Part shown: positions 44,047 through 62,358 of the stretch, piece by piece
Position numbering within the stretch: position 1 is the first letter of the stretch
Layout: each line of letters begins with the position of its first letter
NCBI GenBank assembly: GCA_017619335.1
Contig: JAFZSP010000078.1
Location: 26 to 64,025, forward strand
Direction: 5' to 3'
From: Bacteroidaceae bacterium
GTDB taxonomy: Bacteria > Bacteroidota > Bacteroidia > Bacteroidales > Bacteroidaceae
DNA: 64,000 nt
Translations under genes and position numbers: made by a program
Notes under the pieces: generated by a model
Told to the model about the DNA's origin: nothing
Seen by the model: only the letters and a program-made list of their open reading frames with translations
Databases searched by the model: none

Positions 44047-44054
44047 TATATTTG
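44047..44054 (+). promoter_or_regulatory. -7 promoter box TATATTTG
   Basis: Lies 87 nt upstream of the ATG at 44141. Confidence 0.45.
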
Positions 44055-44140
44055 TCCCCGAAATACCCATAATTGCGGGGTTTTCCCGCACCAAACAAGC
44101 ATTTACAAACCATTTTTATTAACTCTAAATTCAAAATCCT

Positions 44141-47100: not shown

Positions 47101-47737
47101 TGGTGACGTGGCAGCTGACTACAATGTCAACGACTTCAAGATTGACATCGTGAGCGGTGCCCTCAACACCTTCTGCTATCCCATGGGTCTGAAGGCTAAC
47201 GAAGGTCAGATGTATGGTGTCAGCGGCGTGGAACTCGTCGATGGTGGTGCTAAGGTCAGCTTCGTGAAGATTGCTGAGGCCGCTGCCGGTCGTCCGTTCA
47301 TCTTTGTCAGTGGCAACCTTGATGATTATGATTCTGAGACTGAACCCGATGCCATCTCCTTCACTCATGATATGAATCTGGTGGCTGAGGCTGATACCAA
47401 TAGCGTCCTGCGTGGTGACTTCGTAGAGGTTCAGGTGGGTCAGGGTGTCATCCAGGCCAGTGGCAACAAGTTCACTGTCACCAAGAGCAGTGTTGCCAAG
47501 GCTTCTGCCAACACCTGCTGGATTGCTGCTGAAGAGAAGCTTGACAAGAAGGCTACCATCACCATCGATATTACCGATGGCGAAGATGGCATTGCCAGCG
47601 CCATCCGCAACGTGAGCCGTCGTGGTGACATCTACACCATTGATGGTCGTTACATGGGCAAGGGCAATCTCAACAGCCTTGAAGGCCTCGGCCGCGGTGT
47701 CTATATCATCAATGGCACCAAGGTGACTGTGAAGTAA
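44141..47737 (+). CDS. Large secreted protein with two F5/8 type C (discoidin) domains and T9SS C-terminal sorting domain (paralog of 40327..43884)
   Basis: Signal peptide. FWHTDWH...WHVSELNLY and FWHSIWS...HMAEFQLYRA blocks. C-terminus ...GVYIINGTKVTVK. Shares blocks GKWYR[IV]RFGTE, LFRFVAVGD.AY and GRPFI with its paralog. Confidence 0.75.
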   Translation: MKKIYFFLLAMFGLLFSTNIFAQEEPDYGWEVDEAVVTMDNWEELLYSPFSDSVEGTDLSALVDESTSSFWHTDWHGEVSYSGNHYLQIMMPDWVTEETELAMRFTRRSTDNDHTIEWSIRGTNEDVEWSAEESCEELLYASTPFSSNTETLMTETFSTKGYKYIRIYSENTYGKSASFRKFWHVSELNLYTLRKRTLEEYVEEEKNKVLEEYAIYQGTFVTGTTPGCYGEAEVEEFDAALEALYALDEPGAEMPSQEELLAMLERVKVAYEAVLASLVTTAVPDGYYRIRSAMIYYNDVATGEKDEEGNDITEPWEGYKYMMGHKQNGKLWGIWASPDWGGEAVESECRKLWKITNKDGFYDMVSMYNDARFMDVARSTSVEMSLESENLMAIETAGADVDGNVMVNFRVSTQPSGDYLYLHQNGHSNGTGVNGFLVGWCNTVDQTTGEPGATEWVLEPVDEEEALQIIADYEPYKDVKKLVDAMKELSNTAKEQIVVAKDVQKIWDNEDDPLIKDVSQLSSPYTEPSEGALEYLLDGDLSNFWHSIWSSGSVPGGTHYLQVEIVDDDVTTVAFKGYRRNADNDHTTKWSVYGSDDEDLDNELGKEGCDSLATFETPFNKPNEYIEGAVFDTKGHKYLRFYSEEETGPSYGTRGYWHMAEFQLYRAHEYQSETCQYNVLGDIVKNLEAAIEEVDAIDTDEAEMEELQAAYNKLKAAYESFAEKFVDPAELRQAMADATEMAEGVAVGKDPGFWPSTETADALNKMVADAKTYDESGAYTPAKSDEFLASFEALGKACEDAVIKIQEGKWYRVRFGTEDEYEKYGWDYTGSDDDINDEGTVVNEAIFGKYMTLATQEDNDGVHSVIPVEAEDVVMNDNLYFDDDDDIMDKDLSLFRFVAVGDSAYMIQSKATGLFLKAAGTTGRVALSVQPSLFTQKALGLGANLLEAKHINGAGQSNLHFARNWNVIETWGATEIGSRSSLFIETAGDVAADYNVNDFKIDIVSGALNTFCYPMGLKANEGQMYGVSGVELVDGGAKVSFVKIAEAAAGRPFIFVSGNLDDYDSETEPDAISFTHDMNLVAEADTNSVLRGDFVEVQVGQGVIQASGNKFTVTKSSVAKASANTCWIAAEEKLDKKATITIDITDGEDGIASAIRNVSRRGDIYTIDGRYMGKGNLNSLEGLGRGVYIINGTKVTVK

Positions 47738-47760: not shown

Positions 47761-47792
47761 GTTGGCCAGCGCGTTCCTTCGCGCTGGCCAAC
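47761..47792 (+). terminator. Strong GC-rich stem-loop (terminator candidate)
   Basis: gttggccagcgcg-ttcctt-cgcgctggccaac is a 13-bp perfect stem. The downstream T-tract is weak. Confidence 0.6.
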
Positions 47793-47915
47793 GCGTTTAT
47801 ACGCTTAGGAACTTGCGTCCATACGAAAGTCCACTTGCGTTTATACGAAAGTCCACTTGCGTTTATACGAAAGTCCACTTGCGTCCATACGTTTCTTCAT
47901 TAGCGACCATACGCA
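47790..47915. repeat. 22-bp-period tandem array (ACTTGCGTTTATACGAAAGTCC-type units)
   Basis: CTTGCGT recurs at 47812, 47834, 47856 and 47878. Degenerate units lie at 47790 and 47903. Confidence 0.85.
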
Positions 47916-48058: not shown

Positions 48059-51000
48059 ATGAAGAAGTTTTACGCACTCCTTGCGCTGCTTGTGGCGCTT
48101 TCAACGAGCCTTTTTGCCAGTCCCGTCACCCTCGCTGCTCCCGGCGGTGATGATGTCGATCCCTCTACGCTTTCTGGGCGAGAACTGTACGACTATCAGA
48201 TAGCACATCTGAGCCTCTTCCGCCTGAAGAACAAACGCACCTCTACGTCCTATCTGACCACTACCACAGCCGGCTCAGCCATTGGTGCCAAGAAGGCCAG
48301 CAGTGGGCTCTCGCAAATCTGGATAGCAGAGAAGAAGGGCTCCGGATACACCATCCGCAGTGCCAACACGGCCCAGTACCTGCAGGAAGACTTTGCGAAA
48401 CCTGCCGGTGGAGCTGTGACTATGTACATCCAGTTCAGCCCCAACAACACGGGCAAGCAGTCCTATGTCAACATCTCATCCAAGTCTGATTTCAGCGGGC
48501 AGTCCTGTCTGAATCTCAACGGCGACGGAAAGGGCATTTACAAATGGTCTTACGCCAACGATGCGGGCAGTGACTGGGCCATAGATCTTGTGGATGACAT
48601 CTCAGAGGAAGATATAAAAGCTCACTTCGCAGAGATTACTGGTTATGCCACTGAACTCAGTGAAGGCAAGTACTACCGCCTCATCTCCACCACTTACAAC
48701 TTGGCCCTCACCGAGGGCAGTGACCTCGCTGCCAAAGCAGTGGATGAAACCAACTTTGGGCAGTACTGGCAACTGGAGAAATCAGGAACCGGCTATGCCA
48801 TCCAGAGCGTCGTTTCCGAGAAATACATCCAGCGGCAGACCACCACCAGCGCACCCTATCACATGGGTGCCAGCAAGGTGGCTTTCAACATCAAGCCTGT
48901 GGCAGACAAGTGGGAAAGCAAGTGGACCATTGCCTATGGTTCAGATGGTTCTGGTATGCACACTGCTTCGTCACAGAGTTATAATGTAGTGCTCTGGAGC
49001 ACCAATGCCGAAGCCAGCGTCTGGGCTTTCCAGGAAGTGGAACTCTCAGAGGAAGACATCGCAGCTGCGCGTCAGGCCCAGCATGGATTTGACGAGCTGG
49101 TGGCCAACAAGGCTGTTTTACAGGGACATCTGGATGCCCTCTTTGCCGACAAAGCCTGCACCACCCTCAAAGAAGAGATTCAGGCACTGAGTGACGAGCA
49201 GCTGGCTGCCAATGAGAACTTCCTCGGTCTGAACGAAGATATGCAGGCAATGGTGCTGAAAATCAAGAACAACACTTGGAAACAGTTCACCAACGCTTCC
49301 ACAGGATATACGGCGGGTTATGAGAAGTTCTTCCGCATTGCTGACTATCAGATTTACAGCAATTACCAGTCGATGGCCAATGCCAGCAACTTCACTATGA
49401 GCAACAGCTTCGGCAAGCTCTCCGGCCCAACGGGTATCGTGGCCAATCCGGGTGACATCATCTATGTCTATGTCAGCGCCAATCCCAAGAGCGGTACCAC
49501 CCTGCAGCTGGAAGCTGTGATGGCTGATCTCACCGAGGGCAACAATCGTACTGGCCAGACCACGAACCTCAAGGCTGGTCTCAATCTGTTCAAGTTCCCC
49601 GAGGCCAAGATGCTCTACATCTTCCACGAACTGACCAACCCCAGCAGTAAACTGGCCAACTATCCTGATGTGACTGTTCACATCGAGGGCGGACAGCTCA
49701 ACGGCTACTGGGATGCCACACGCGGCATGACAAACGAGGACTGGATACTCATGCAGAAAGAGATGCTGAAAGCTCCCATGCTGAACCTGAAAACCAAGCA
49801 TTTGGTCTTCCAGATGAACGCTGCAGTGGTGAAGAAAGCCGAGCCCAAGGAGATGGAAGGACTCATGCGTGTCTGGGACAGAGTGCCGGAGAATGAGGAG
49901 AAATACATGGGCGTGGAGGACTTCGAGGGTCGCTACCGCAATATCTGGAACGTCTTCTCCATCCAGAATAATTATATGTATGCCACCACATACGGTACCT
50001 ACTATAATGAGTCCACGCTGCCCACTGTGATGAATTATTCCAATATGACAAAGACGGCAGGCAACCTCTGGGGACCCAGCCATGAAATGGGGCATAATCA
50101 CCAGAGCAGCATCAACGTTATCGGCACCACGGAGAGCTCTAACAATATGTTCTCCAACATCAATATCTTTGAACAGGGCATTGCTGGCACTCGTCGTCAT
50201 TATCCTGCCGACAACTTCACGGAGATGGCTGCGCAGACGCCTTGGCTGCAGCGCAACATCTGGCTCACCACCAGCATGTTCTTCCAGCTTTACCTGTACT
50301 TCCACGTCCAACATCACGATGACAACTTCCTGCCCAATCTCTTCCGCCAGATGCGTAAGAAGCCCATCAACAAGTGGAGCGGACCTGGCGGCACAGGCCC
50401 CACCTCCTACGGCAAGGATGACTACCTGCATCTGGCCAAGATGATCTGTGATGTGGCACAGGCCGACTTGAGCGAGTTCTTCGAGGCATACGGTATGTTC
50501 TATCCTGTCTCCATGATGGAAGTGGGTGACTATTCCACCTATTTCGTTACCACCACGCAGGCACACATCAACAGTGCCAAGACTTATATGCAGAAGTACG
50601 AAAAGAAACTCGGCAACATCATGTTCATTGACGACCGTGTGCTCAAGAAAAAAGCCGATCCTGACAACCTCTTTGAGGGCGTTCCCGCCAAGGACGGATG
50701 GAAAGTGGCCATCAATGATGAGAATCCCTTCCCGTCCGGAAGCACCTATATTGGAGGTGACTATGAGTCTTACACCGATGAACCTGCCGATGTGACAGAT
50801 GATTACTATACCCTGTCTTCCAATAAGAAGACCATCACTTTCCACGGCACCAACTATGCCGGCCACAAGTTCTATGATGCCGACGGCAACTTCATCTGGG
50901 CCACCAATGCCAAGTCCATCAAACTGCCCGACTGTGTCGTGAACCTCGGCATGGAGAATGTGACTGTGAAGACTGCCCAGTATGACATGAAGGACGTCCT

Positions 51001-51163
51001 CTGTGTGGACAAGGAGACTGCCATCCGTGAGATAGAGAACGGCTCCGCTACGCTTGGTTCCAGCGCGGCAGACCATCGCGTCTTTGACCTCACAGGCCGA
51101 CAAGTTAACCTTCCCAGGACCAAGGGAATTTACATCCGCAACGGCAAGAAAGTGATCAAATGA
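48059..51163 (+). CDS. M60-like (enhancin-like) zinc metallopeptidase with N-terminal QxW beta-trefoil-like lectin repeats and T9SS C-terminal sorting domain
   Basis: Signal peptide. Repeats SQIW.., GQYWQLEK.. and ASVWAFQEV. Zinc motif SHEMGHNHQ (HEXXH). C-terminus ...GIYIRNGKKVIK. Confidence 0.75.
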   Translation: MKKFYALLALLVALSTSLFASPVTLAAPGGDDVDPSTLSGRELYDYQIAHLSLFRLKNKRTSTSYLTTTTAGSAIGAKKASSGLSQIWIAEKKGSGYTIRSANTAQYLQEDFAKPAGGAVTMYIQFSPNNTGKQSYVNISSKSDFSGQSCLNLNGDGKGIYKWSYANDAGSDWAIDLVDDISEEDIKAHFAEITGYATELSEGKYYRLISTTYNLALTEGSDLAAKAVDETNFGQYWQLEKSGTGYAIQSVVSEKYIQRQTTTSAPYHMGASKVAFNIKPVADKWESKWTIAYGSDGSGMHTASSQSYNVVLWSTNAEASVWAFQEVELSEEDIAAARQAQHGFDELVANKAVLQGHLDALFADKACTTLKEEIQALSDEQLAANENFLGLNEDMQAMVLKIKNNTWKQFTNASTGYTAGYEKFFRIADYQIYSNYQSMANASNFTMSNSFGKLSGPTGIVANPGDIIYVYVSANPKSGTTLQLEAVMADLTEGNNRTGQTTNLKAGLNLFKFPEAKMLYIFHELTNPSSKLANYPDVTVHIEGGQLNGYWDATRGMTNEDWILMQKEMLKAPMLNLKTKHLVFQMNAAVVKKAEPKEMEGLMRVWDRVPENEEKYMGVEDFEGRYRNIWNVFSIQNNYMYATTYGTYYNESTLPTVMNYSNMTKTAGNLWGPSHEMGHNHQSSINVIGTTESSNNMFSNINIFEQGIAGTRRHYPADNFTEMAAQTPWLQRNIWLTTSMFFQLYLYFHVQHHDDNFLPNLFRQMRKKPINKWSGPGGTGPTSYGKDDYLHLAKMICDVAQADLSEFFEAYGMFYPVSMMEVGDYSTYFVTTTQAHINSAKTYMQKYEKKLGNIMFIDDRVLKKKADPDNLFEGVPAKDGWKVAINDENPFPSGSTYIGGDYESYTDEPADVTDDYYTLSSNKKTITFHGTNYAGHKFYDADGNFIWATNAKSIKLPDCVVNLGMENVTVKTAQYDMKDVLCVDKETAIREIENGSATLGSSAADHRVFDLTGRQVNLPRTKGIYIRNGKKVIK

Positions 51164-52713
51164 AGAACGCTCGCTTTCTGTCCCTCCTTCCGTCAGCAGC
51201 TTTTCTGCTGCTGACGTGGTTTTGGGCCGCCTGGTGGATGGGAGATATCGGACTAATGGCCTATGAGAATTCCTTTGTGACAGCAGACAGCACATTGATG
51301 CACTGGCTGTGGCAACAACCGTTTGGCGTGCTGTGGATTGTTGGTCGTGTGCTATTGCTGACCTATCACTGGCCTTGGGTTGGTGGATTGTTGGTGGCAG
51401 TGCTGCTGACGGCAGGCTCGTGGCTGGTGGGTTACTGTCTGCGAATGCCGCAACGCTGGCGTTTCCTGCAGTATCTGCCGGCTGGTGTCTGGATGACATG
51501 GGTGGCGTGGCTCGGACTGAATGTGTTCTATCAGCATGAACCTGGCCGCCCCTTGGGCGTGCTCTTTCTCGTGGTGCTCGTCTGCGCCATTGATGCCTTC
51601 ATCATCTGGACTTTCAAGAGCAGAAGGAAGAGCGTGGTGACTGCCGATGTGAAATCCAAGAAGCCCGCAGTCCCTCATTATTCTTTCTATCTTCTACATC
51701 TTTTAGTCTTCCTCCTCTGTCTGTCTGTTCCCATGGCGCTGACTCATGCCCGTTATCCCTATGCCCGTCCTGTCACCCGGATGCAGGTACAGATGCAGCA
51801 GCAGGACTGGAACGGAATGGCGGAGACGGCCCGTGCCAATGCTCATCTCAGCTACCGTCCTTTGGCTGCCTATTATGCCGTCGCCCTGGTTCACAATGGT
51901 CGTCTGGCCGATGACCTGTTTGACATCCGATTGGACTATGATACGCTTTACCTGAAGGATCGTGCCGGTAAAGGTGATGTGGGTTCCAACTACTATACCA
52001 TTGACTGTAATTTCCACGCAGGCCTCGTCCGTCCCGCCACACACCGTGCTATGGAGTTGTTGACGATGGAAGGTCCGTCTCTATTCTCCCTGAAGATGCT
52101 GACGCGCTGTGCCCTGCTGGATCACCACTGGCAGTTGGCTCGCAAGTATCTGCATATCATCGGGAAAGCACCCTTTGAAGGGGCTTTCGTGGAGAAGTAC
52201 AGTGCCATGATTGAGCACCCAGAACTGATAGATGCCGACCCGGAGTTCAATGTCGTCCAGCGAACCATGCCCATAGAGGATAGTTTCGAGAGTATGTACC
52301 AGGAACCTATCTTCCTCGGCTACGCTGTAGATCTCATGCAGGGACGTAGCAAGGAGGCATTGATCCAGAGCTTGATGGCCAATCTCTACAGCAAACGTAT
52401 GCCCGCTTTCCTCATGCGCTGCGAACCCCTTGTGGGTACCACGCCTCCGCTCTCCATCGGGCAGGGGCTGGTCACCCAAGCCCGCAAGTTCCCTGATGTG
52501 CTCAAGGCTTTTCCGTCTTTGGATATGGAGATGCGGCGCTTCGTCAGTTTCCTCCAAGTGGTGCAGCCTTATATGCAGGATCGTCCTCGTGGCGGTATCG
52601 AGCTCTTTGACCAGTATCACGGCTATTATCCCTATTATTATTTCTTCGGAAACCTCAAGGCCACCCGCAAGACCAACACCCAGGATTCATCCTCTGCGGC
52701 GGGTGTGAATTAA
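51160..52713 (+). CDS. Trp-rich polytopic membrane protein with soluble helical C-terminal half (possibly DUF6057), cassette copy 1
   Basis: Its ATG overlaps the M60 stop (ATGA at 51160-51163). There are 5-6 N-terminal TM helices (WFWAAWWMGD, LLLTYHWPW). It is a paralog of 54298..55809. Confidence 0.65.
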   Translation: MKNARFLSLLPSAAFLLLTWFWAAWWMGDIGLMAYENSFVTADSTLMHWLWQQPFGVLWIVGRVLLLTYHWPWVGGLLVAVLLTAGSWLVGYCLRMPQRWRFLQYLPAGVWMTWVAWLGLNVFYQHEPGRPLGVLFLVVLVCAIDAFIIWTFKSRRKSVVTADVKSKKPAVPHYSFYLLHLLVFLLCLSVPMALTHARYPYARPVTRMQVQMQQQDWNGMAETARANAHLSYRPLAAYYAVALVHNGRLADDLFDIRLDYDTLYLKDRAGKGDVGSNYYTIDCNFHAGLVRPATHRAMELLTMEGPSLFSLKMLTRCALLDHHWQLARKYLHIIGKAPFEGAFVEKYSAMIEHPELIDADPEFNVVQRTMPIEDSFESMYQEPIFLGYAVDLMQGRSKEALIQSLMANLYSKRMPAFLMRCEPLVGTTPPLSIGQGLVTQARKFPDVLKAFPSLDMEMRRFVSFLQVVQPYMQDRPRGGIELFDQYHGYYPYYYFFGNLKATRKTNTQDSSSAAGVN

Positions 52714-52747
52714 AGTTTAGAGTTTAGGGTTTAGAGTAAAAAGTTAT

Positions 52748-54292
52748 ATGAAATACAAGATATTCATTCTTCCCATTTTCCTGTTCACCCTGTTTCTTGT
52801 CTCCTGCACTAAACCTTCTGCTGTGCCGCAGCAATTTACGGAGGTGAAGGAGGATGCAGTAATTTATCCTGATTATCGTGACGTGACCATTCCGCCCAAT
52901 ATCGCGCCGCTGAATTTTATGGTCACAGATGATGCAGCCGATGCCTTTGTGACCCAGGTGGGCGACCTCGTCTGTGGGGCCGGCAAGGACGGCAAGTTTG
53001 ACTTGGACACGCTGGCGTGGCGTCAAATGTTGTCGGCAACCAAGGGCGGGGACCTCTCTGTCAGCGTCTTTGCACATCGTGAAAGCGGCTGGGTCAAGCA
53101 TCCGGACTTCACGCTGCATGTGGCAGAAGAGGAGATAGATCCCTTCCTGTCCTACCGTCTCATAGAACCCGGCTATGAGCTGTACCGTCAGTTGGGCCTG
53201 TACCAGCGGAACCTCACCAACTTCACGGAACACGTCATCTATGAGAACAATCGCGCCTTCAGCGATGAGGACAATCACTGTGTGAACTGCCATAACTACC
53301 AGGCCTACGACACAGACCGTATGCTCTTTCATGTTCGCGGTCAGCATGGCGGCACCATTATCGTCCAAGGCGGTGAAGCCCACAAGATAGCCATCAAGCA
53401 TGACAGCATCTTGTCTGCGGGAGTCTATCCCTCGTGGCATCCCACTTTACCGCTGGTGGCTTTCTCCACCAACAAGACTGGTCAGGTCTTCCATCTCCAG
53501 CATCCTGAGAAGATTGAAGTGCTGGATGAGGCTTCCGATCTCCTGCTCTATGATGCAGAGAAGAACACCGTGCAGAACGTCCTTCGCTCCAAGGAGTATA
53601 TGGAGACTTTCCCCTGCTGGGCTCCGGATGGTCGCCGCCTGTACTACTGCTGCGCCAAAGTCCCCGAGTCCTTGATGGCAGACTACACTGCTTTCCAGGT
53701 TGCCTTGAAGTATGACAGCCTCTTCTACGATATCTATTCGATGCCCTTCGACCCTGATACCCGCTCCTTTGGCGAGCCGCGTTTAGAAGTCAACGCCAGT
53801 GCCGACCGTCACAGCATCAGTGTCCCTCGCGTCAGCCCCGACGGACGCTTCCTGCTGTTCACAAAAGGGGACTACGGGCAGTTCCATATCTGGCATCAGA
53901 GTGCCGATTTGTGGGTAAAAACACTCACCAGCGCCGATGGTCTCCCCTCTCTAACAGGAGAGGGGTCGGGAGAGAGGCTCTACCCTCTTTCCGCCGCCAA
54001 CTCCCCAGAGGCAGAGAGTTATCACAGCTGGTCCAGCAATGGGCGTTGGATCGCCTTTGTCAGTCGGCGTGAGGACCAAAACTTCTCCCGTGTCTTCATC
54101 ACCTATTTTGATCGTGAAGGGCAGGCCCGTCGTGCTTTCCTGCTTCCCCAGCAGGATCCCGAGCACAACACGCTGCTGCTGAAGAGTTATAATGTGCCCG
54201 AGCTGAGCAAACGTGCTGTACAGGTGAGTTTTGAGACCCTGAAACATGTGGTGTATCATACAGAGGCTGAGACAGCCACCTTTAAGGAATAA
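52748..54292 (+). CDS. Lipoprotein with CXXCH heme-binding motif and PD40/TolB-like beta-propeller repeats, cassette copy 1
   Basis: Lipobox FLVSC. HCVNCHN at 53276-53296. Propeller-type repeats WAPDGRRLYY, VSPDGRFLLF and WSSNGRWIAFVSRR. Confidence 0.65.
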   Translation: MKYKIFILPIFLFTLFLVSCTKPSAVPQQFTEVKEDAVIYPDYRDVTIPPNIAPLNFMVTDDAADAFVTQVGDLVCGAGKDGKFDLDTLAWRQMLSATKGGDLSVSVFAHRESGWVKHPDFTLHVAEEEIDPFLSYRLIEPGYELYRQLGLYQRNLTNFTEHVIYENNRAFSDEDNHCVNCHNYQAYDTDRMLFHVRGQHGGTIIVQGGEAHKIAIKHDSILSAGVYPSWHPTLPLVAFSTNKTGQVFHLQHPEKIEVLDEASDLLLYDAEKNTVQNVLRSKEYMETFPCWAPDGRRLYYCCAKVPESLMADYTAFQVALKYDSLFYDIYSMPFDPDTRSFGEPRLEVNASADRHSISVPRVSPDGRFLLFTKGDYGQFHIWHQSADLWVKTLTSADGLPSLTGEGSGERLYPLSAANSPEAESYHSWSSNGRWIAFVSRREDQNFSRVFITYFDREGQARRAFLLPQQDPEHNTLLLKSYNVPELSKRAVQVSFETLKHVVYHTEAETATFKE

Positions 54293-54297
54293 GCAAA

Positions 54298-55809
54298 ATG
54301 AGTAAAAAGATTTTTCAGCACTGGGGATTGATTCTCTTCTTCCTCCTTGCGTGGCTGTGGGCTTCCTGGTGGATGGGAGATGTGATGCGCATCGCCTACG
54401 AGCGTTCCTTCTTTGCCCCCGATGCCACGCTGATGTATTGGTTGTGGCAACAGCCGTTCGGATGGCTGTGGATCATTGGTCGTGTACTGTTGTTGACTTA
54501 TCATTGGCCCTGGGCGGGCGGTCTGTTGGTGGCGGTGCTGCTGACGGCAGGTTCGTGGCTCGTGGGTTACTGTCTGCGACTGCCGCAGCGCTGGCGCTGG
54601 CTGCAATACCTGCCGGCTGGCGTCTGGATGATGTGGACAGCCACCGTGGGCTTGAACCTCTTCTATGCTCGTGAACCTGGGCGCATCCTGGGTGTTCCTT
54701 TCCTGATGGTAACACTCTTCGCCATAGCAGCACTCATCACCTGGCTCGCAGCCCAACACAGCAGCCCCCTCCCGAGCTCCCCCAAGGGGGAGTGGGCCTT
54801 TATTCTCATCTGCTTCGCGCTCCCCGTCTGCACCCTTCACTTCCAGCATCCCTACATTCGTCCCCTCACTCGGATGCAGGTGCAGCTGCTGCATGATGAC
54901 TTTGAAGGGATTTCACGTACAGCCCACGAACATGCCGAGATGAGTTACCGCCAGATGGCTGGTTATTACGCCATTGCACTGGCTCGCACGGGACATCTGG
55001 CAGAGCAGCTTTTTGATATCAAACTGGACTTTGACACCATCACCACCTACAATTATGGTGGTCACCCCACATCTACACTGAACTATCACATCATCGATTG
55101 TGATTACCATGCTGGCCTCATCCGTGCGGCACGTCATTACGTGATGGAAGACCTCACGATGGATGGTCCCTCGCTCTTCACGCTGAAATATATGGTGAAG
55201 ATTTCACTCTTGGAGGGAGACTGGGTCCTGGCGCGCAAATACCTTCATATCCTTCGGAAAGTACCTTTTGAGGGTACATTCCTGCGCAAGTATGAGCCCA
55301 TGGTGGAACGTCCCGACCTGATACAGGCTGACCCAGAGTTTGCGTTCATTCTCAATATGCTGCCTCCCTACCACACCTTTGAGCAGATGGACGAGAAACC
55401 CGCGTTTGTGGGCTTTTATGCCAACATGAGAGGTTTCCAGAACAAGGAGGCGCTCATCTGGAGCACGGTGGCTTGTCTCTACAGCAAACGTATGCCTGCT
55501 TTCCTCCAGCGCTGCCAGCGGTTAGTGGGCACCACACCTCCACGTTCCATCGCAGAAGGGCTCCTCTTGGAATCCTACAAGGAGCCCGCCATCCTGAAAG
55601 CGTTCCCTCAGCTGGAGATGCTGGTGGACCGCTTTGAGCTCTTCCTCCAAGATGCCAGCCCCTATATGGATGACCGTGAGCGGGGCAGTGAGGCGCTCTT
55701 TGAGAAGTACCACGGTTATTATCCCTATTATTATTTCTTCGGCAATCTCCGCAACACTCGCCGACCCTCCGATGATGAGCCGGCGGCCAACAAGGCGGGA
55801 GTGAATTAG
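54298..55809 (+). CDS. Trp-rich polytopic membrane protein (possibly DUF6057), cassette copy 2
   Basis: 503 aa. Long identical runs with copy 1 (for example GGLLVAVLLTAGSWLVGYCLR). Starts 5 nt after the preceding stop. Confidence 0.65.
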   Translation: MSKKIFQHWGLILFFLLAWLWASWWMGDVMRIAYERSFFAPDATLMYWLWQQPFGWLWIIGRVLLLTYHWPWAGGLLVAVLLTAGSWLVGYCLRLPQRWRWLQYLPAGVWMMWTATVGLNLFYAREPGRILGVPFLMVTLFAIAALITWLAAQHSSPLPSSPKGEWAFILICFALPVCTLHFQHPYIRPLTRMQVQLLHDDFEGISRTAHEHAEMSYRQMAGYYAIALARTGHLAEQLFDIKLDFDTITTYNYGGHPTSTLNYHIIDCDYHAGLIRAARHYVMEDLTMDGPSLFTLKYMVKISLLEGDWVLARKYLHILRKVPFEGTFLRKYEPMVERPDLIQADPEFAFILNMLPPYHTFEQMDEKPAFVGFYANMRGFQNKEALIWSTVACLYSKRMPAFLQRCQRLVGTTPPRSIAEGLLLESYKEPAILKAFPQLEMLVDRFELFLQDASPYMDDRERGSEALFEKYHGYYPYYYFFGNLRNTRRPSDDEPAANKAGVN

Positions 55810-55876
55810 TGGGGACTCTCCCCCCGCCCTCCTTAAGGGAGGGAGCTTTTACTAATCAAGAATAATTCAAAGCATT

Positions 55877-57376
55877 ATGTTTTTAAGAAAAGAATATACT
55901 CAAGTTCTATCTTTCCTTATCCTTTTTACCTCCTGCACCCGTCCTTCTGCGGTGCCGCAGCAGTTCACGGAGGTGCAGGAAGAAGCGGTGATTTATCCTG
56001 ATTATCGTGACGTGACCATTCCTCCTAATATCGCTCCGCTGAACTTCATGGTCACGGATGCTGCGGCAGATGCCTTTGTGACGCAGGTGGGTGACCTCGT
56101 CTGTGGGGCAGGCAAGGACGGCAAGTTTGACTTGGACACACTCGCGTGGCGCCAGGTGCTCTCGGCTGCCAAGGGTGGAGACCTCGCTGTCAGCGTCTTT
56201 GCACATCGTGAAAGCGGCTGGGTCAAGCATCCCGACTTCACGCTGCATGTGGCAGAGGAGGAGATAGACCCCTATCTCACCTACCGCCTCATCGAACCCG
56301 GCTATGAGCTGTATTTCCAGTTGGGCATTTACCAGCGGAACTTGACCAACTTTGATGTCCAGACTATCTATGAAAACGACCGAAGCAATCATGGACGAAG
56401 CCATTGCATCAACTGCCATAACTTTCAGAATTACAGCACTGACCGGATGATTCTCCACGTGCGCGAGAATAATAAAGGTACTGTCGTCACCCACGGCACA
56501 GACGCCTTCAAGATGCTGATCAAGCATGACAGCATCATCGCTTCCGGTGCCTACGCCAGCTGGCACCCCACCCAGCCTCTCTTGGCATTCAGCAGTAACA
56601 AGACGGCCCAGGTCTTCCACTATCATTATCCCGAGAAGATTGAGGTGTATGATGCCGAGTCGGACATCATCCTCTATGATGCCGAGCGCAATGAGGTGCG
56701 GAACATCATCCGTTCGCCAGACTATTTCGAGACCTTCCCCGGCTGGTCTGCAGACGGCACGCGCCTGTACTACTGCTCGGCACGCCTGCCCGAGTTCAAG
56801 TATGTCAACTTCGAAGCCAGTCTGGTCACACGGTATGACAGCCTCCTGTATGACATCTATTCCATGCCCTTTGACACTGTCACCTATACATTCGGGGAAC
56901 CTCGACTTGAGGTGGATGCCAGCTCACAGAACCTCAGTTGCAGCGTGCCACGTGTCAGCCCCGATGGACGCTACCTCCTTTACACACTCGCCCAATACGG
57001 GCAGTTCCATCTCTATCACAAGAGTGCAGATCTTTGGGTGAAGAGACTGGACTCCGCAGATGAGTACCCCCTCACTGCCACTAACTCCCCAGATGTGGAG
57101 AGTTATCACGGCTGGTCCAGCAATGGGCGCTGGATGGTCTTCTCTTCCCGACGGGATGATGGCGACTACACCCGCACCTACATCGCCTATTTCGACCGTC
57201 AGGGACAGGGGCACCGTGCCTTCCTGCTTCCCCAGCGTGACCCCGAATATAACCTGCTGCTGCTGAAGAGCTACAACTGCGCCGAACTCACCCGTGATGC
57301 CGTGCGCCTCACCCAAGAGGACTTCAACCACGTAATCCGTCACACCGAGGCAGAATTAGCTACCTATAAAGAATAA
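55877..57376 (+). CDS. Lipoprotein with CXXCH motif and PD40/TolB-like beta-propeller, cassette copy 2
   Basis: Lipobox LFTSC. HCINCHN at 56402-56422. Residues 21-159 differ from copy 1 at 11 of 139 positions, and the rest is much more diverged. Confidence 0.65.
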   Translation: MFLRKEYTQVLSFLILFTSCTRPSAVPQQFTEVQEEAVIYPDYRDVTIPPNIAPLNFMVTDAAADAFVTQVGDLVCGAGKDGKFDLDTLAWRQVLSAAKGGDLAVSVFAHRESGWVKHPDFTLHVAEEEIDPYLTYRLIEPGYELYFQLGIYQRNLTNFDVQTIYENDRSNHGRSHCINCHNFQNYSTDRMILHVRENNKGTVVTHGTDAFKMLIKHDSIIASGAYASWHPTQPLLAFSSNKTAQVFHYHYPEKIEVYDAESDIILYDAERNEVRNIIRSPDYFETFPGWSADGTRLYYCSARLPEFKYVNFEASLVTRYDSLLYDIYSMPFDTVTYTFGEPRLEVDASSQNLSCSVPRVSPDGRYLLYTLAQYGQFHLYHKSADLWVKRLDSADEYPLTATNSPDVESYHGWSSNGRWMVFSSRRDDGDYTRTYIAYFDRQGQGHRAFLLPQRDPEYNLLLLKSYNCAELTRDAVRLTQEDFNHVIRHTEAELATYKE

Positions 57377-57421
57377 GCCACTAACCGCCATCAAGAGCAG
57401 CTTGGCCGTCGTTACAAAAAA

Positions 57422-57527
57422 GTCTCACCGATGAGACAGAATTATCTCACCGATGAGACAAATCAGTCTCAATAATGAGACAGAACAGTCTCACCATTGA
57501 GACAAACCTGTCTCACCATTGAGACAA
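57422..57527. repeat. Five 22-bp-spaced copies of the palindrome GTCTCA-N4-TGAGAC
   Basis: Units start at 57422, 57444 (degenerate, aTCTCA), 57466, 57488 and 57510. Confidence 0.9.
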
Positions 57528-57836
57528 ACGTTTTCAACCAAATGACAAGCTATTTTTCTGAGGCGAAATTTTGGTCGCTCCATACTTTGAGAACGCCGTC
57601 AATTTGATGTGGAAAAGGTGCCAAAAGAAATGCAGAGATGACATAAAGATTGAAAAATGGAATACTTAAGAGACCTTTAGACTTAATTATTTGCCAAATA
57701 TTTGGAAATGTCGGAAAAATGTAGTTCCTTTGCACCCCAAAAGTTAGAAAAGTACTGATTATCACTCCAACAATATACTTTTATATATCATCCAACGGCC
57801 ACATTTTCAAGTGGACTCATTAAGAAAATATACAAT

Positions 57837-60374
57837 ATGAAAATTTCAGGAGAACCAATTATAGATTTGGAGCATCTGGAGAATCTTTTAGAGCATAACG
57901 AGCGTCCCAGTTCTGGAATCAAGTTTGAAAAACTGATACCGATGATTGTACTCAACTGGCACTATTTTCTCTTCTCACTCATCATCTTCATGAGTGGGGC
58001 CATCCTTTATCTGCGATACGCTGAGCCTGCCTACAAACTGTCGTCCAGGCTGCTGATCAAAGATGAGCAGAAACAGAACAGCAGTGCCTCGCAGTTGCTC
58101 TCCAATATGGTGGACATGGGATTTGTGACCAACTCGTCTGGTATTGACAATGAGGTAGAGGTGATGCGGTCACGCATTCTGATGCGCGACGTGGTTCGGG
58201 ATCTGCATCTTAATGCCGAATATCGCCTTAAAGGGCGGCTCAAGAATATGCTTGTCTATGGCCGTCAGCCCTTCAGTGCCGAATTGGATCCCGTTGTGCT
58301 GGACAGCCTTGACAAGGACTATATAGAGTGGGGCGACATCTCCAGCGTCATGATACAGATGACCAGGAATAACAATGGGTATGATGTTACCGGCAGCGTC
58401 TATCAGTCGGGAAATGAGAAAGGCTGTCGGATCAAGCCTTTTCATGCGCACAGGGACTCACTGCCGGCCTATATCAATACGGCCCTTGGCACCCTGACGC
58501 TGACTCCTTCTGCCCGCTATCAGATGCAGGTGGGTGACAGTTACTTTGTCACCATCTTGCCACCGATGGCGGTGGCCACCAAATACCTGTCGGCGATGAC
58601 TGTTGAGTCCACCAGCAAGCGCACCGACATAGCCAGAGTAACTATTACCGACAAGAACCCGCAACGCGGCATGGATTTTCTGCGGCGACTGGCCGTTTGC
58701 TATAATCGACGTGCCAATGCGGACAAGAACGAGGTGGCACTGCGTACCGAGGAATTTATCAACGAACGAGTGAAGAAAATCAACGAGGAATTGGGACTTA
58801 CAGAAAGTGAACTCGCCGACTTCAAAAGCCGTCATGCTGTAACAAGCCTCCAAGTCGATGCCACACAGGCCGTGCAGATGAGCAACCAGTTCTCCACTCG
58901 CCTGTCGGAGGCCGATGCACAGATCCGCCTCATCGACTACCTTCGAGACTATGTCGTTGACCCACAAAACAAGTATCAGGTAATACCCTCTAATGTAGGA
59001 CTTACTGACGGCGCCACCACACAACTTATTGCTGAATACAACAGGACTATACTCAGTCGCAACCGTCTGCTGACAGCCGCTAACGAGGATGCGCCACAAG
59101 TGCAGACACTCACTGCGACCATCGATGATTTGGCTGCCAGTATTTCGACAGCGTTGCTGCAGGCTCGTCATTCAGCCGACATCACACGTCAAGGTATTAT
59201 GAACCAATATAGCAAGTATCAGAGCCAGATAGCAGGCGCTCCAGTTCAGGAACAGGTGCTCACACAAATTGGCCGTCAGCAGGAAGTGAAGTCGGGCATC
59301 TTGCTTCTGCTCTTGCAGAAACGTGAGGAGAACAGTATCTCGCTCGCAGCCACTGCCGACAAAGGCAGGCTTATTGACGAGCCACTCAACGAGGGAAAGG
59401 TGAAACCCAAAAAATCCATTGTATTCCTCGGTGCACTGCTGATGGCTCTTGTCCTACCTTTATTAATTATATGGCTCATCGGCCTGTTACGTTACCGTAT
59501 TGAAGGACATGATGATGTGCAGAGCCTCACCTTATTACCCATCATTGCTGACATACCCATGGCAAGCGACGATGTGAAGTCATCAGCTGGCATCGTGGTT
59601 CAAGAGAACAAGAACACGCAGATGGACGAAATTTTCCGCTCGCTGCGAACCAATATTAAGTTCTTACTGAAAGAAAACGAGAAGAAAATACTCTTCACAT
59701 CCAGCATCTCTGGTGAGGGCAAGACTTTCTGCGCCGCTAATCTGGCTATGAGCTTCGCGCTGCTGGGTCAGAAGGTTGTACTCTGCGGACTTGACATACG
59801 CAAGCCGGCACTGGGCCGCCTGTTCGGTATTGCCGACAGACGCCTCGGGATTTCCACGCTTCTCACCAAGGAAACGGTCACTCTCGATGACGTAAAGAGT
59901 CATATTGTCCCTTCCGGTGTCAACGACAACCTTCACCTGCTTCTGTCAGGCCCCATTCCGCCAAACCCCTCTGAGCTGTTGGCTCGCAAGACGTTCCAGC
60001 AGTTGGTAAGCCTTTTGGAACAGCAATATGACTATGTTATCTTCGACACCGCTCCCGTAGGACTTGTTACAGACACGCTGCAGATTGCGGAACTGGCTAA
60101 TTGCTGTGTGCTGGTTTGCCGTGCCGACTACACCCCCAAGTCCAGTTTCGGCTTGCTGAACCAGTTGGCTACCGAGGGCAAATTGCCCAACGCCAGCGTC
60201 GCCATCAACTCTATCGACATGTCACGTCGCAAGTACGGCTACTATTATGGCTATGGCGTTTACGGAAAGTATGGACGCTATGGCAATTATGGGAAATACG
60301 GAAATTATGGCCATTATGGTATGTATGCAGACAGCCACTATGGCCAGCACGACGACAATTCCATCAAGAAGTAA
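57837..60374 (+). CDS. Wzc/GumC-like polysaccharide co-polymerase fused to BY-kinase (tyrosine autokinase) with Tyr-rich tail
   Basis: N-terminal Wzz-like domain with two TMs. Walker A SGEGKTF, VIFDTAPV and VLVCRAD. The C-terminal tail is YGYYYGYGVYGKYGRYGNYGKYGNYGHYGMY (about 60219-60350). Confidence 0.85.
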   Translation: MKISGEPIIDLEHLENLLEHNERPSSGIKFEKLIPMIVLNWHYFLFSLIIFMSGAILYLRYAEPAYKLSSRLLIKDEQKQNSSASQLLSNMVDMGFVTNSSGIDNEVEVMRSRILMRDVVRDLHLNAEYRLKGRLKNMLVYGRQPFSAELDPVVLDSLDKDYIEWGDISSVMIQMTRNNNGYDVTGSVYQSGNEKGCRIKPFHAHRDSLPAYINTALGTLTLTPSARYQMQVGDSYFVTILPPMAVATKYLSAMTVESTSKRTDIARVTITDKNPQRGMDFLRRLAVCYNRRANADKNEVALRTEEFINERVKKINEELGLTESELADFKSRHAVTSLQVDATQAVQMSNQFSTRLSEADAQIRLIDYLRDYVVDPQNKYQVIPSNVGLTDGATTQLIAEYNRTILSRNRLLTAANEDAPQVQTLTATIDDLAASISTALLQARHSADITRQGIMNQYSKYQSQIAGAPVQEQVLTQIGRQQEVKSGILLLLLQKREENSISLAATADKGRLIDEPLNEGKVKPKKSIVFLGALLMALVLPLLIIWLIGLLRYRIEGHDDVQSLTLLPIIADIPMASDDVKSSAGIVVQENKNTQMDEIFRSLRTNIKFLLKENEKKILFTSSISGEGKTFCAANLAMSFALLGQKVVLCGLDIRKPALGRLFGIADRRLGISTLLTKETVTLDDVKSHIVPSGVNDNLHLLLSGPIPPNPSELLARKTFQQLVSLLEQQYDYVIFDTAPVGLVTDTLQIAELANCCVLVCRADYTPKSSFGLLNQLATEGKLPNASVAINSIDMSRRKYGYYYGYGVYGKYGRYGNYGKYGNYGHYGMYADSHYGQHDDNSIKK

Positions 60375-60393
60375 CGACCCCCAATATTAGACA

Positions 60394-61212
60394 ATGGAAT
60401 ACATGACAAAGAATGTAACAACCACAGTATTTGCAGCCCTTGTAACCCTGCTGTTCGCAGCCTGTTCATCGCCCAAGAATGTTGCTTATATCAAGAACAG
60501 CGACACATTTATCGCCGACAGTTCGGCATTTCTCTTCGAGGCACATATCATGCCAAAGGATGTACTCACCATCACGGTAAACACCGTTAATCCCGAAGCC
60601 TCGGCACCCTTTAACCTCGTGGTGTCACCCACACTGAACAATACGTCTTCAGGAGGTCAGTCACTTAGCAGCGTCCGCTCTTTGCAGACCTATCTTGTTG
60701 ATAATGACGGCACAATAGACTATCCCGTATTAGGTAAACTGCACATCGGCGGGCTGTCAAAAGCGGAGTGTGAGAAACTTATCCACGATCGTATTATGCA
60801 CTATCTGAAAGGCAGTGAAGACCCCGTGGTGACGGTGCGTATGGCCAATTACAAGATTTCTGTATTGGGTGAGGTGGCTCATCCGGGCATGTTCACGGTG
60901 AACAACGAAGAAATCAACATCTTCGAGGCCCTGGCTCTTGCAGGCGATCTCACTATCTATGGTGTACGTGACCATGTGAAGCTCATCAGAAAGGATGCCG
61001 ATGGCAAACGACAAGTTTATACGATGAACCTCAATGATGTGAACATCATCACTTCGCCCTGCTACTACCTTCAGCAGAATGATGTCGTGTATGTGGAACC
61101 CAACAAGGTGAAAGCCCGCAACTCCAGCGTAGGTCAGACCACATCGCTATGGCTCACTTCGACAAGCATACTGATATCTATAGCAGCATTATTGTATAAC
61201 ATCTTAAAATGA
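60394..61212 (+). CDS. Wza-like polysaccharide export lipoprotein (Poly_export + SLBB)
   Basis: Lipobox LFAAC. PKDVLTITV... and a GDLTIYG..VKLIR SLBB-like segment. 272 aa. Confidence 0.8.
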   Translation: MEYMTKNVTTTVFAALVTLLFAACSSPKNVAYIKNSDTFIADSSAFLFEAHIMPKDVLTITVNTVNPEASAPFNLVVSPTLNNTSSGGQSLSSVRSLQTYLVDNDGTIDYPVLGKLHIGGLSKAECEKLIHDRIMHYLKGSEDPVVTVRMANYKISVLGEVAHPGMFTVNNEEINIFEALALAGDLTIYGVRDHVKLIRKDADGKRQVYTMNLNDVNIITSPCYYLQQNDVVYVEPNKVKARNSSVGQTTSLWLTSTSILISIAALLYNILK

Positions 61213-61400
61213 CGAGCATGTCCGATCATCATTCACACCATCACAGTCATCAGCGCGAGGACTATGGCTCACGCTTCAAGCGCACCAGTCTGGCATCAAT
61301 AGCTTTCCGACGCAAGGCTGACAAATGGTTGAAGATTATACTCTTCTTCCTCTCTTTCATCATGATTACGCTTGTTGTTTTGGCATATCTCTATGGATAA
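61209..61400 (+). CDS. Small His-rich single-TM protein (63 aa), candidate
   Basis: Its ATG overlaps the wza-like stop (ATGA). The N-terminus is MTSMSDHHSHHHSHQ and there is a C-terminal TM (ILFFLSFIMITLVVLAYL). It ends 7 nt before the next ATG. Confidence 0.5.
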   Translation: MTSMSDHHSHHHSHQREDYGSRFKRTSLASIAFRRKADKWLKIILFFLSFIMITLVVLAYLYG

Positions 61401-61407
61401 TACCATC

Positions 61408-61857
61408 ATGGAGAAGAAAATTTTTGCTGCTGCCTCACTCGGCGGACACTGGAAACAGTTGTTGCGAATCACAAAACCTCTGGAAGAGCGTTTTGAGGTG
61501 GTATATGTATCTACCCATCCTCAATGTGCAACGATGATTGGTGAGAGTAGGTTCTATTTAACAAGTGATTTCAGCCGGAATGATGCATGGCGTATGTTCC
61601 CTGTATTTTTCCGACTTTTCCGCATTTTATGGCGTGAACGTCCGGATGCTGTGCTCACGACAGGTGCTGCCCCCGGATTAGTATGTCTGTTAGTCGGGTG
61701 GCTATTGCGCCGGAAGACCATTTGGGTTGACAGCATAGCCAATGCAGAGCATCTGTCGGTAAGCGGGCGCATTGCCCGACATTTCGCATCCCGCACTTAT
61801 ACTCAGTGGCCTGATTTGGTTCAGCCTGATGTCCTCTATGCCGGCTCCGTCTTTTAA
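61408..61857 (+). CDS. Alg14-like glycosyltransferase accessory subunit (PssD/Cps14F type)
   Basis: MEKKIFAAASLGGHWKQLL ... VLTTGAAPG ... WVDSIAN. The start is taken at the ATG at 61408 rather than the ORF-track 61372. Confidence 0.75.
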   Translation: MEKKIFAAASLGGHWKQLLRITKPLEERFEVVYVSTHPQCATMIGESRFYLTSDFSRNDAWRMFPVFFRLFRILWRERPDAVLTTGAAPGLVCLLVGWLLRRKTIWVDSIANAEHLSVSGRIARHFASRTYTQWPDLVQPDVLYAGSVF

Positions 61858-61884
61858 TCAAACATTGTCAATTGTCAAATCAAT

Positions 61885-62358
61885 ATGGTTTTTGCAACAA
61901 CAGGAACACAATTCCCTTTTGATCGCTTAATCAACATTCTTGATGAGTTGGCTCCGCAACTCAACGAGAAAGTCATAGCTCAGGTGCATCACACCACCTT
62001 ACGGCCTCGCCATATCAAAACGGTTGACTTCTTGGCACCAGATGAATTTGACAAGCTGTTCAATGAGGCTCGTTTAATTGTGGCTCATGCAGGAATGGGG
62101 ACTATACTCTCTGCCTTGCAACAGAACAAGCCAATCATCATTTTCCCCCGCATTGCAGCTCTGGGCGAGCACCGCAATGAGCATCAGTTGGCCACTGCCG
62201 CCAAGATGCGCGAACGTGGTTGGGTGTATGTCGCGAGCACCCCTGAAGAGCTCAAGTCATTGCTCCTCACTCCCGATTTGCATCCCCTTCATCGGATTGA
62301 AGGCACTGCATCCCAGCGTCTCATACAGTCCATCTCAGATTATATTGAAAAGGAATGA
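61885..62358 (+). CDS. Alg13-like glycosyltransferase catalytic subunit (PssE/Cps14G type, Glyco_tran_28_C)
   Basis: MVFATTGTQFPFDRL ... VAHAGMGTILSAL ... NEHQLATA. Confidence 0.8.
   Translation: MVFATTGTQFPFDRLINILDELAPQLNEKVIAQVHHTTLRPRHIKTVDFLAPDEFDKLFNEARLIVAHAGMGTILSALQQNKPIIIFPRIAALGEHRNEHQLATAAKMRERGWVYVASTPEELKSLLLTPDLHPLHRIEGTASQRLIQSISDYIEKE

Follow-up and report, generated by a model that had tools for sequence, protein, structure and literature searches.

What is a two-gene cassette, encoding a polytopic membrane protein and a propeller lipoprotein, doing directly behind the gene for a secreted, mucinase-like protease, and does it serve that protease or function on its own? The question is raised by a stretch of 64,000 nt from contig JAFZSP010000078.1 of a Prevotella-like (Prevotellaceae-sense) rumen bacterium, hereafter the window, in which two such membrane/propeller gene pairs follow one another in tandem. 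Our comparative analysis indicates that the pair, which combines a DUF6057 membrane protein with a TolB-like propeller lipoprotein, is an envelope module in its own right and not a protease accessory. The genes concerned, with coordinates relative to the window, are as follows:

48059-51163, + strand: M60-like (enhancin-type) metallopeptidase of 1034 amino acids (PF13402), the upstream neighbour, outside the conserved pair.
51160-52713, + strand: memA, DUF6057 membrane protein of 517 amino acids (PF19529), A-type copy.
52748-54292, + strand: propA, lipoprotein of 514 amino acids with an N-domain and a six-bladed PD40/TolB-like propeller, A-type copy.
54298-55809, + strand: memB, DUF6057 membrane protein of 503 amino acids (PF19529), B-type copy.
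55877-57376, + strand: propB, propeller lipoprotein of 499 amino acids (PD40, CxxCH), B-type copy.

The open reading frames (ORFs) bear out the original prediction for this locus in its gene order after the M60-like gene (membrane, propeller, membrane, propeller), in its protein sizes, and in the overlap (ATGA) of the TGA of the M60 gene with the ATG of memA (AAATGAAG). Of the spacers predicted as 35, 5 and 67 nt, those between propA and memB (5 nt) and between memB and propB (67 nt) were correct; the first, between memA and propA, is 34 nt.

How constant is the association of the two genes? When one genome per GTDB species was scanned, 77 loci came up, every one of them in a metagenome-assembled genome (MAG) of Prevotellaceae type from rumen or gut. 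Among their DUF6057 genes, 85 (from ~75 species-level genomes) have 1.5 kb or more of sequence downstream, and 84 of these are followed by a propeller gene; the median gap is 70 nt, and some of the genes overlap. An exhaustive profile search shows the family to be far wider, comprising ~1,388 DUF6057 clusters at 50% identity. We examined the genomic context of eight distant members:

L082, metagenome contig: three tandem pairs, with purB and GH94; start/stop overlap.
L084, metagenome contig: two pairs, after a low-molecular-weight (LMW) phosphatase gene.
L086, metagenome contig: one pair, beside parAB.
L088, cultured Pseudoprevotella muciniphila E39 (C7Y71_005090 and the next gene): one pair, with glmM directly downstream.
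L089, Paludibacteraceae: one pair, after sufS-sufE.
L091, Parabacteroides sp. PF5-5: one pair, in a xylan polysaccharide utilisation locus (PUL); the genes overlap by 28 nt.
L092, Sedimentisphaerales-binned contig (Planctomycetota): one pair, in reversed gene order.
L093, MAG GCA_029564895.1: one pair, before a TonB-dependent receptor gene.

All eight adjoin a gene for a PD40 propeller of ~500 amino acids, and none adjoins an M60 gene. Co-occurrence of the two families in other genomes, which the original prediction had named as a check, is thereby seen among close and distant relatives alike. The adjacency persists down to identities of 20-25% for the membrane protein and 33-40% for the propeller, and the neighbours at the distant loci are unrelated to one another (purB/GH94, priA/LMW phosphatase, parAB, dnaJ/glmM, sufSE, the xylan PUL and the TonB-dependent receptor). 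Because the two genes stay together at such low identity and in unrelated neighbourhoods, and because the pair is the unit of tandem amplification, we take these data as strong evidence for an obligate functional pair. The adjacency might instead be meaningless, that is, two unrelated genes might keep their order through shared ancestry; the 77 loci belong for the most part to a single family-level clade, in which synteny alone could suffice. To this explanation we give practically no credence, as it is effectively refuted by the persistence at low identity in different neighbourhoods, by the single reversal of the order, by the tandem units and by the start/stop overlaps.

Does the pair then belong to the protease? 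Profile annotation of the flanks of the related loci reveals a recurrent order of F5/8-type-C protein(s), M60, DUF6057 and propeller. At 52 of 65 loci an M60 gene lies next upstream, in 44 of them within ~420 nt and in ~10 overlapping or nearly so. The M60 protein of the window matches PF13402 with 98 bits against a cut-off of 25.8 (E 9e-28), and contains an HEXXH motif (HEMGH), a weak ricin-type lectin match and a short C-terminal tail resembling those of type IX secretion system (T9SS) cargo. This tail (...VFDLTGRQVNLPRTKGIYIRNGKKVIK) fits, by eye, motifs B/D/E of the short C-terminal domains (CTDs) described for Prevotella (PMC11969387), and has no TIGR04183 or PF18962 match. Upstream, at 40327-47737 (+), lie two paralogous and very acidic proteins of ~1190 amino acids, each with an F5/8 type C (discoidin/CBM32-like) domain and a short T9SS-like tail; the protein at 40327-43884 matches TIGR04183 at E 0.007 and 16 bits, below the cut-off of 23. 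Each F5/8C gene has its own terminator-like hairpin (40205-40235 and 43994-44028). One or two F5/8C genes accompany M60 in most related loci, and no correlation was seen there between their number and the duplication of the pair. A literature search on Peptidase_M60 in the rumen found nothing. That the M60 and F5/8C proteins are T9SS cargo is suggested by the fit of their tails to the Prevotella short CTDs.

The original prediction regarded the pair as a machine dedicated to this cargo, for which it would provide a periplasmic chaperone, an inhibitor, or a modification or anchoring step. The overlap of the M60 and memA genes in the window, the proximity of M60 in the related loci and the CTD-like tails all favour such a role, as do two precedents: peptidase genes paired with lipoprotein inhibitor genes (PMC9890683), and PorE (PG1058), a T9SS-associated lipoprotein with tetratricopeptide repeats (TPRs), a TolB-like propeller, CRD and OmpA_C (PMC12204202, PMC12773672), which has been described as a CpoB-TolB-Pal-like fusion (PMC12204202). 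The distant pairs speak against it, however, since all eight stand among unrelated housekeeping or PUL genes and lack an adjoining M60 gene. One of them is on a contig binned to the Planctomycetota, a phylum that to our knowledge has no T9SS. Even among the related loci, an oppositely oriented gene sits between M60 and the pair in L040, L044 and L050, and the potempins, the inhibitors in question, are unrelated proteins of 98-132 amino acids. We consider a dedicated accessory machine improbable. The predicted coupling to M60 stands in this lineage, as operon-like packing, and fails at the eight distant loci; the absence of an adjoining M60 gene from the distant loci indicates that the linkage was acquired by the rumen Prevotellaceae as a lineage-specific trait. 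That is, the pair would be the older unit and the cargo genes the addition.

The packing in this lineage extends to the other side of the pair. In 40 loci the propeller gene is followed on the same strand by nagB, identified as glucosamine-6-phosphate deaminase above the TIGR00502 cut-off, with a gap of 17-120 nt in ~29 of them (e.g., L070, L050 and L081). Genes for nagA, glmM and a GH20 hexosaminidase also occur near the pair in related loci; the window itself has no nagB at the position after the pair. In the rumen lineage, the placement of the pair in an operon-like block with M60, lectin-domain proteins and nagB suggests that it takes part in glycoprotein foraging or is co-regulated with it.

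What kind of membrane protein is encoded? The tentative assignment to DUF6057 in the original prediction proved right: memA and memB match PF19529 with 126.3 and 120.2 bits against a cut-off of 29.8 (E ~1e-36), best over profile positions ~167-568. Most canonical members of the family have 600-640 amino acids and about nine transmembrane (TM) helices. The subfamily of the window has ~5, roughly four fewer. The AlphaFold2 (AF2) model of memA is confident, with a predicted local distance difference test score (pLDDT) of 92, and divides the protein as follows:

51160-51753, + strand: membrane region of memA, residues 1-198 (AF2 secondary structure).
51763-52647, + strand: all-helical TPR-like soluble domain of memA, residues 202-496, predicted periplasmic (AF2).
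52702-52710 (memA) and 55798-55806 (memB), + strand: C-terminal tripeptide G-V-N of DUF6057, after a disordered linker.

The membrane region consists of Trp-rich helices at residues 2-26, 72-94, 98-122, 130-160 and 174-198, with short juxtamembrane helices at 28-36, 48-52 and 56-70. As predicted from the letters, Trp is concentrated here, with 15 in residues 1-200 and 2 in the other 317. Loops 95-101 (RMPQRWR) and 153-173 (seven Lys/Arg) are basic and loop 27-55 is acidic, which under the positive-inside rule argues for an N-in/C-out topology and would place the helical domain in the periplasm. In a family alignment of memA, D29, E36 and S38 are conserved after TM1. The solenoid is the best-conserved part of the wider DUF6057 family, and the family-wide conserved columns lie mostly within it. 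Of 91 Prevotellaceae homologues, 87 end in xGVN, as do the proteins of P. muciniphila and L086; N517 of memA is invariant, and residues 509-514 have a pLDDT below 50. The stretch W-x-W-x-x-W-W-M-G-D at the periplasmic end of TM1 is confined to the Prevotellaceae subfamily and is absent from canonical DUF6057.

In agreement with the original prediction, neither profile nor structure searches linked the membrane protein to a characterised family or a solved fold. A Foldseek search of memA against the PDB gave nothing significant and nothing enzyme-like, only solenoids of the TPR and pentatricopeptide repeat (PPR) type at a best E of 0.03 and template-modelling (TM) scores of at most 0.2; a DUF6057 sequence search of the PDB gave no match, and a profile search nothing better than E 0.7. 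One canonical DUF6057 member has a weak, below-threshold match to DUF6056 (E 4.5e-4). Literature searches returned no paper mentioning DUF6057 and nothing relevant on DUF6056, and none of the four pair proteins has a PADLOC anti-phage defence match at E up to 0.01.

Two enzymatic readings of the membrane protein were considered and rejected. A GT-C glycosyltransferase or O-antigen-ligase-like enzyme was suggested by the polytopic membrane region, the large periplasmic domain and the conserved acidic residue after TM1. We judged it by similarity to the core fold or profile, by the presence of at least 7-8 core TM helices and by an acidic residue in the first outer loop. Against it stand the lack of a Foldseek match, PDB profile matches only at E 0.7 or above, the ~5 TM helices, and an hhalign comparison with the TMEM260-like protein of the window, which returned a probability of 0.4%. 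That protein, of 1104 amino acids (31950-35920, - strand; DUF2723), is a GT-C protein of putative protein O-mannosyltransferase type whose gene adjoins one for a polysaccharide deacetylase. The second reading, a WWD-type haem lyase such as CcmC, CcmF or CcsA, would call for a conserved WWD motif in a periplasmic loop with conserved His on either side, and was rejected on the subfamily-only distribution of the Trp motif and on the lack of an invariant His in the membrane region.

What, in turn, is the partner? PropA and propB match PD40 with 57.4 and 55.2 bits (cut-off 20.9), and neither has any other significant Pfam or NCBIfam match. In its AF2 model (pLDDT 88.7), propA begins with the signal peptide of a lipoprotein and continues with an N-domain that is mostly beta and reaches to about residue 166, followed by approximately six four-stranded blades. 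Its best structural match in the PDB is full-length TolB (4pwz, Foldseek E 1e-11), and all 157 PDB matches with E of at most 1e-3 are propellers. Lipoproteins in Bacteroidota are taken to face the periplasm if they have a lipobox Cys and lack an acidic lipoprotein export signal after Cys+1. PropA has the lipobox LVSC and then TKPSA, propB has FTSC and then TRPSA, and neither stretch contains an acidic residue; the lipobox Cys is kept in 12 of 13 distant propellers, and some of the distant propellers carry one Asp near +2, +3 or +6. The propeller lipoprotein is predicted to face the periplasm on these grounds, and the original description of the partners as PD40/TolB-like CXXCH lipoproteins without an acidic export signal is borne out. 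The N-domain carries a family-wide motif, YPDY..(V/I)xxPxN(I/V)APLNF, with invariant P41, D42, Y43, P49, N51, A53 and P54, and a stretch IDP(Y/F)...R.IEP is also conserved among the 13 propellers.

The propellers of L082, L084, L086, L088 and L089 have a C-terminal extension with a recurring D-G-x-(S/T)-(G/S)-A-S motif, which is present twice in those of P. muciniphila and L086; the propellers of the window have no such extension. We considered a tail swap, GVN on DUF6057 for DG.(S/T)GAS on the propeller, as Rosetta-stone evidence for interaction, and rejected it. Both tails coexist in P. muciniphila and L086, and there is therefore no clean swap between the partners.

The TolB-like architecture raises the possibility of a structural tether of the Tol-Pal or PorE kind, in which an inner-membrane helical arm would reach an outer-membrane TolB-like lipoprotein, linking the two membranes or organising peptidoglycan and outer-membrane homeostasis, with a structural CxNCH motif and no catalysis. 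Full-length TolB as the best structural match would fit, and so would the combination of TPRs with a TolB-like propeller, found also in CpoB/TolB and fused in PorE (PMC12204202), the varied genomic neighbours expected of a housekeeping envelope function, and the glmM, nagB and nagA neighbours in Prevotellaceae and P. muciniphila. The propellers are not TolB orthologs, however: they score 30.1 and 42.1 bits with TIGR02800, against an equivalog cut-off of 343. Their N-domain is mainly beta and that of TolB alpha/beta. No tol or pal genes occur beside the pair in any locus examined, and neither a Pal/OmpA_C domain nor a TolQR-like motor is encoded there. Tandem arrays with fast-diverging B copies are also better explained by diversification of a ligand or partner. 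We give a purely structural tether a small chance; should the propeller be structural, it would add a Tol/PorE-like element to the envelope.

A short motif in the propeller invites a functional interpretation:

53279-53293, + strand: C-V-N-C-H motif of propA, residues 178-182.
56405-56419, + strand: CINCH motif of propB, residues 177-181.

C178, N180, C181 and H182 never vary, nor does H231, either in 71 close homologues or across 13 propellers with identities as low as 33%; H383 is present in 11 of the 13. This invariance implies that the motif is functionally important. A conserved Cys in a periplasmic protein of a strict anaerobe usually means a cofactor, and the site could bind haem c or a metal. 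Taken further, the pair could be a periplasmic redox module, in which the propeller would be a mono-haem c-type cytochrome with covalent haem at C-x-N-C-H and His231 or His383 as distal ligand, and DUF6057 would either chaperone or anchor the apoprotein, as a TPR protein of the CcmI kind, or provide a link to a membrane electron or haem pool. Besides the joint invariance of CXXCH and a second His, the Trp-rich stretch at the end of TM1 is reminiscent of the WWD motif in proteins that handle haem, and a membrane protein with periplasmic TPRs encoded beside a CXXCH protein recalls CcmI and its apocytochromes in System I. This reading is opposed by the lack of any cytochrome family match for the propellers in Pfam or NCBIfam, even at E 10, by the restriction of the Trp motif to one subfamily without conserved flanking His, and by the AF2 model, in which the motif is a strand and not the usual helical turn. 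A literature search found no paper combining PD40 with CXXCH. On balance we think a redox module unlikely, though with a chance worth keeping in sight.

How did the window come to have two pairs, and what does their divergence say about function? MemA and memB are 55% identical, propA and propB 67%, and the differences are unevenly distributed. Two tracts stand out:

52808-53224, + strand: gene-conversion tract in the N-domain of propA, residues 21-159, shared with propB 55937-56353.
51277-51489, + strand: tract of memA most like memB, residues 40-110 (10 differences in 71 codons; synonymous divergence, dS, 0.97).

The propellers differ at 11 of 139 positions in residues 21-159, exactly the count that was originally reported, versus 134 of 340 in residues 160-514, and their dS is 0.56 within the tract and 1.64 in the rest. 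Near-identical runs in the N-terminal halves of the membrane proteins, likewise part of the mosaic first described, lie in residues 46-105 (83-93% identity). In residues 40-110 the nearest relative of the A copy of the window is the B copy of the window, and this stretch is possibly a weaker conversion tract.

The four-gene arrangement is complete in eleven genomes, including that of the window; at two further loci it runs into the end of a contig. Solenoid and propeller sequences from different genomes group according to their place in the arrangement, with A-A and B-B identities of ~0.64-0.70 and A-B identities of 0.52-0.62, which makes the duplication older than these species. Where a locus has a single copy, this is of the A type for 62 of 65 membrane genes and 61 of 62 propeller genes, and B-type propellers are farther from outgroups than A-type ones, whereas the membrane proteins show no A/B separation by this measure. 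These two observations identify B as the probable derived pair, and the congruence of the A and B groups for both genes suggests that both B genes diverged together.

The N-domain behaves differently. Its within-genome identity is 0.93 in the window, 0.96 in L019, 0.87 in L016 and 0.84 in L012, versus only ~0.60 in other genomes. That is, the N-domain clusters by genome in several lineages while the rest clusters by ortholog, which indicates that gene conversion has homogenised it independently in four to five lineages. The within-genome clustering and the contrast in dS uphold the conversion that had been proposed; the claim that it is ongoing does not hold for the window genome, since a dS of 0.56 in the tract means that the last event there was not recent. 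Homogenisation of the N-domain, and weakly of the TM tract, suggests that these parts contact something common to both copies. It is a reasonable inference that they meet a shared component and that the solenoid and propeller carry the copy-specific function.

These results can be combined into one model. The window would contain an old envelope module of two genes, complete in itself, in two paralogous copies. DUF6057 would be anchored in the inner membrane by ~5 TM helices and project a 300-residue TPR-like solenoid into the periplasm, and its partner would be a periplasm-facing lipoprotein of TolB-like architecture, with an N-domain followed by a six-bladed propeller. The two would form an obligate one-to-one complex, in which the propeller is held in place by the helical domain, perhaps aided by the GVN tail, and serves as the working subunit, with haem or a metal at C-x-N-C-H plus His231. 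In rumen Prevotellaceae the module appears to be embedded in an operon-like block of F5/8C, M60, the pair and often nagB, and would there probably be co-expressed with functions of glycoprotein and amino-sugar utilisation. In a sub-lineage the whole pair would have been duplicated, the B genes co-diverging in the solenoid and propeller, which are presumed to be ligand or partner surfaces; the repeated homogenisation of the N-domain, and weakly of the TM tract, fits a contact with a component common to both copies. We hold with moderate confidence, at about an even chance, that the pair is such an autonomous periplasmic complex, an inner-membrane TPR-like scaffold with a cofactor-bearing TolB-like lipoprotein, co-opted into a glycoprotein/amino-sugar operon. 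What speaks for it is the strict adjacency, the predicted placement of the helical domain and the lipoprotein in one compartment, the TPR-like and TolB-like folds, the invariant motif and the joint divergence of the two genes.

Several observations count against this model. The AF2 strand that holds C-x-N-C-H is the first of a long beta hairpin and would point the two Cys to opposite faces, which is untypical both of haem c sites and of chelating CxxC knuckles. The loss of ~4 TM helices shows that the membrane part of DUF6057 is plastic and gives no function, and the conserved columns of the wide family are mostly structural, with only an acidic position after TM1 and a Glu in the solenoid standing out; the role of the membrane protein may thus go beyond that of a scaffold, or be a different one. 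Finally, the sole exception to the adjacency, at L005 5091-6761, is a second DUF6057 gene followed by unrelated ORFs of 707 and 1023 amino acids.

A bolder version of the model would make the pair a new class of periplasmic cofactor machine in anaerobic Bacteroidales, namely a TolB-like propeller with haem or a redox metal at the invariant site, assembled on a dedicated polytopic membrane protein of new fold or coupled to it electrically or mechanically, diversifying by tandem duplication with co-evolution of the partners and wired into a mucinase/amino-sugar operon. We regard this as a long shot. DUF6057 is a sizeable family of gut, rumen and other anaerobic Bacteroidales for which we found no paper, solved structure or functional hint. 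Through the constant partner, the invariant C-x-N-C-H and the joint duplication and divergence, what was only a DUF becomes a defined system of two components whose residues can be tested, and a cultured host exists in Pseudoprevotella muciniphila E39. Binding of haem or a metal by the propeller would make it a new kind of periplasmic cofactor protein in dominant rumen and gut organisms.

The remaining features of the locus concern possible regulation and the wider neighbourhood:

55827-55843, + strand: hairpin CCCTCC-TTAA-GGGAGGG followed by AGCTTTT, within the 67-nt memB-propB spacer; it looks like a weak terminator or attenuator.
57414-57528, directly 3' of the propB stop codon: five tandem 22-nt units, each with the palindrome GTCTCA-N4-TGAGAC (5 copies versus 0.2 expected, and none elsewhere in the window).
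47763-47913, in the 321-nt leader upstream of the M60 gene: strong hairpin GTTGGCCAGCGCG-TTCCTT-CGCGCTGGCCAAC, then, at 47811-47913, a 22-nt tandem repeat of ~4 copies (ACTTGCGTTTATACGAAAGTCC) whose core TTGCGTYYATACG has four occurrences versus 0.2 expected.
38155-40134, + strand: DUF4954 + DUF6819 protein of 659 amino acids, upstream of the F5/8C genes.
57837-63758, + strand: start of an exopolysaccharide/capsule locus, with a Wzc-like protein (GNVR plus tyrosine kinase), Wza, a split Alg14/Alg13-like glycosyltransferase and a WbaP-like initiating transferase.

The whole M60-pair block is flanked on both sides by repeats of 22-nt period, and the hairpin/repeat region of the M60 leader could be an operator array, or a terminator plus a promoter region; no Rfam family of structured RNA was found across 40000-64000. 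The DUF4954 + DUF6819 family also lies upstream of the cargo genes in at least nine related loci, often with a divergently transcribed protein of ~200 amino acids. A link of the pair to the downstream Wzc/Wza/WbaP locus was rejected, as this adjacency occurs in the genome of the window only. At L084 3856-4350, an LMWPc gene shares 4 nt with the beginning of the first DUF6057 gene; this LMW-phosphatase neighbour is a single case, insufficient to revive the link to a polysaccharide locus.

How, then, does the pair compare with known systems? It falls outside every characterised kind, which reflects missing characterisation and not a demonstrated new mechanism. Like CcmI, DUF6057 is a membrane protein with a predicted periplasmic TPR-like part encoded beside a CXXCH protein, and like the WWD proteins CcmC, CcmF and CcsA its subfamily carries, where TM1 meets the periplasm, a Trp-rich stretch that closes with Asp. 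Unlike them, it shows no sequence or fold match and has no conserved His ligands, and canonical DUF6057 lacks the Trp motif. With the SprF/PorP-like adaptors and the potempins of the Tannerella KLIKK peptidases it shares an envelope-protein gene beside known or putative T9SS cargo genes, sometimes for a lipoprotein (PMC9890683); in size, fold and family the proteins are unrelated, and the DUF6057/propeller pair predates the cargo genes and is also found where they are absent. NlpI-Prc and LbcA-CtpA also consist of a helical scaffold that holds a globular periplasmic partner, and LbcA in 8sxf ranks tenth in the Foldseek search with memA, but this match is not significant (E 0.39, TM score 0.17), and the partner in the window has no peptidase domain.

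In architecture, and only there, the pair resembles systems with TolB-type propellers. In Tol-Pal, as in the pair, a periplasmic N-domain precedes a six-bladed PD40 propeller (4pwz), and the propeller acts alongside a TPR-type helical protein (CpoB/YbgF) and an inner-membrane-anchored helical arm (TolA). The propeller of the window differs in being predicted to be lipidated, in its mostly beta N-domain and invariant C-x-N-C-H, and in its TIGR02800 scores; it has no adjacent Pal or TolQR genes, and its polytopic membrane partner matches neither TolA nor CpoB. From PorE the pair is set apart by having its modules on separate proteins, with the TPR-like part on a polytopic inner-membrane protein, by having no peptidoglycan-binding domain, and by its occurrence outside the T9SS context as well. 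What it shares with PorE is the combination of a TPR module with a TolB-like propeller, apparently in the same compartment, the periplasm of Bacteroidota, and, in the window, a setting among putative T9SS cargo genes.

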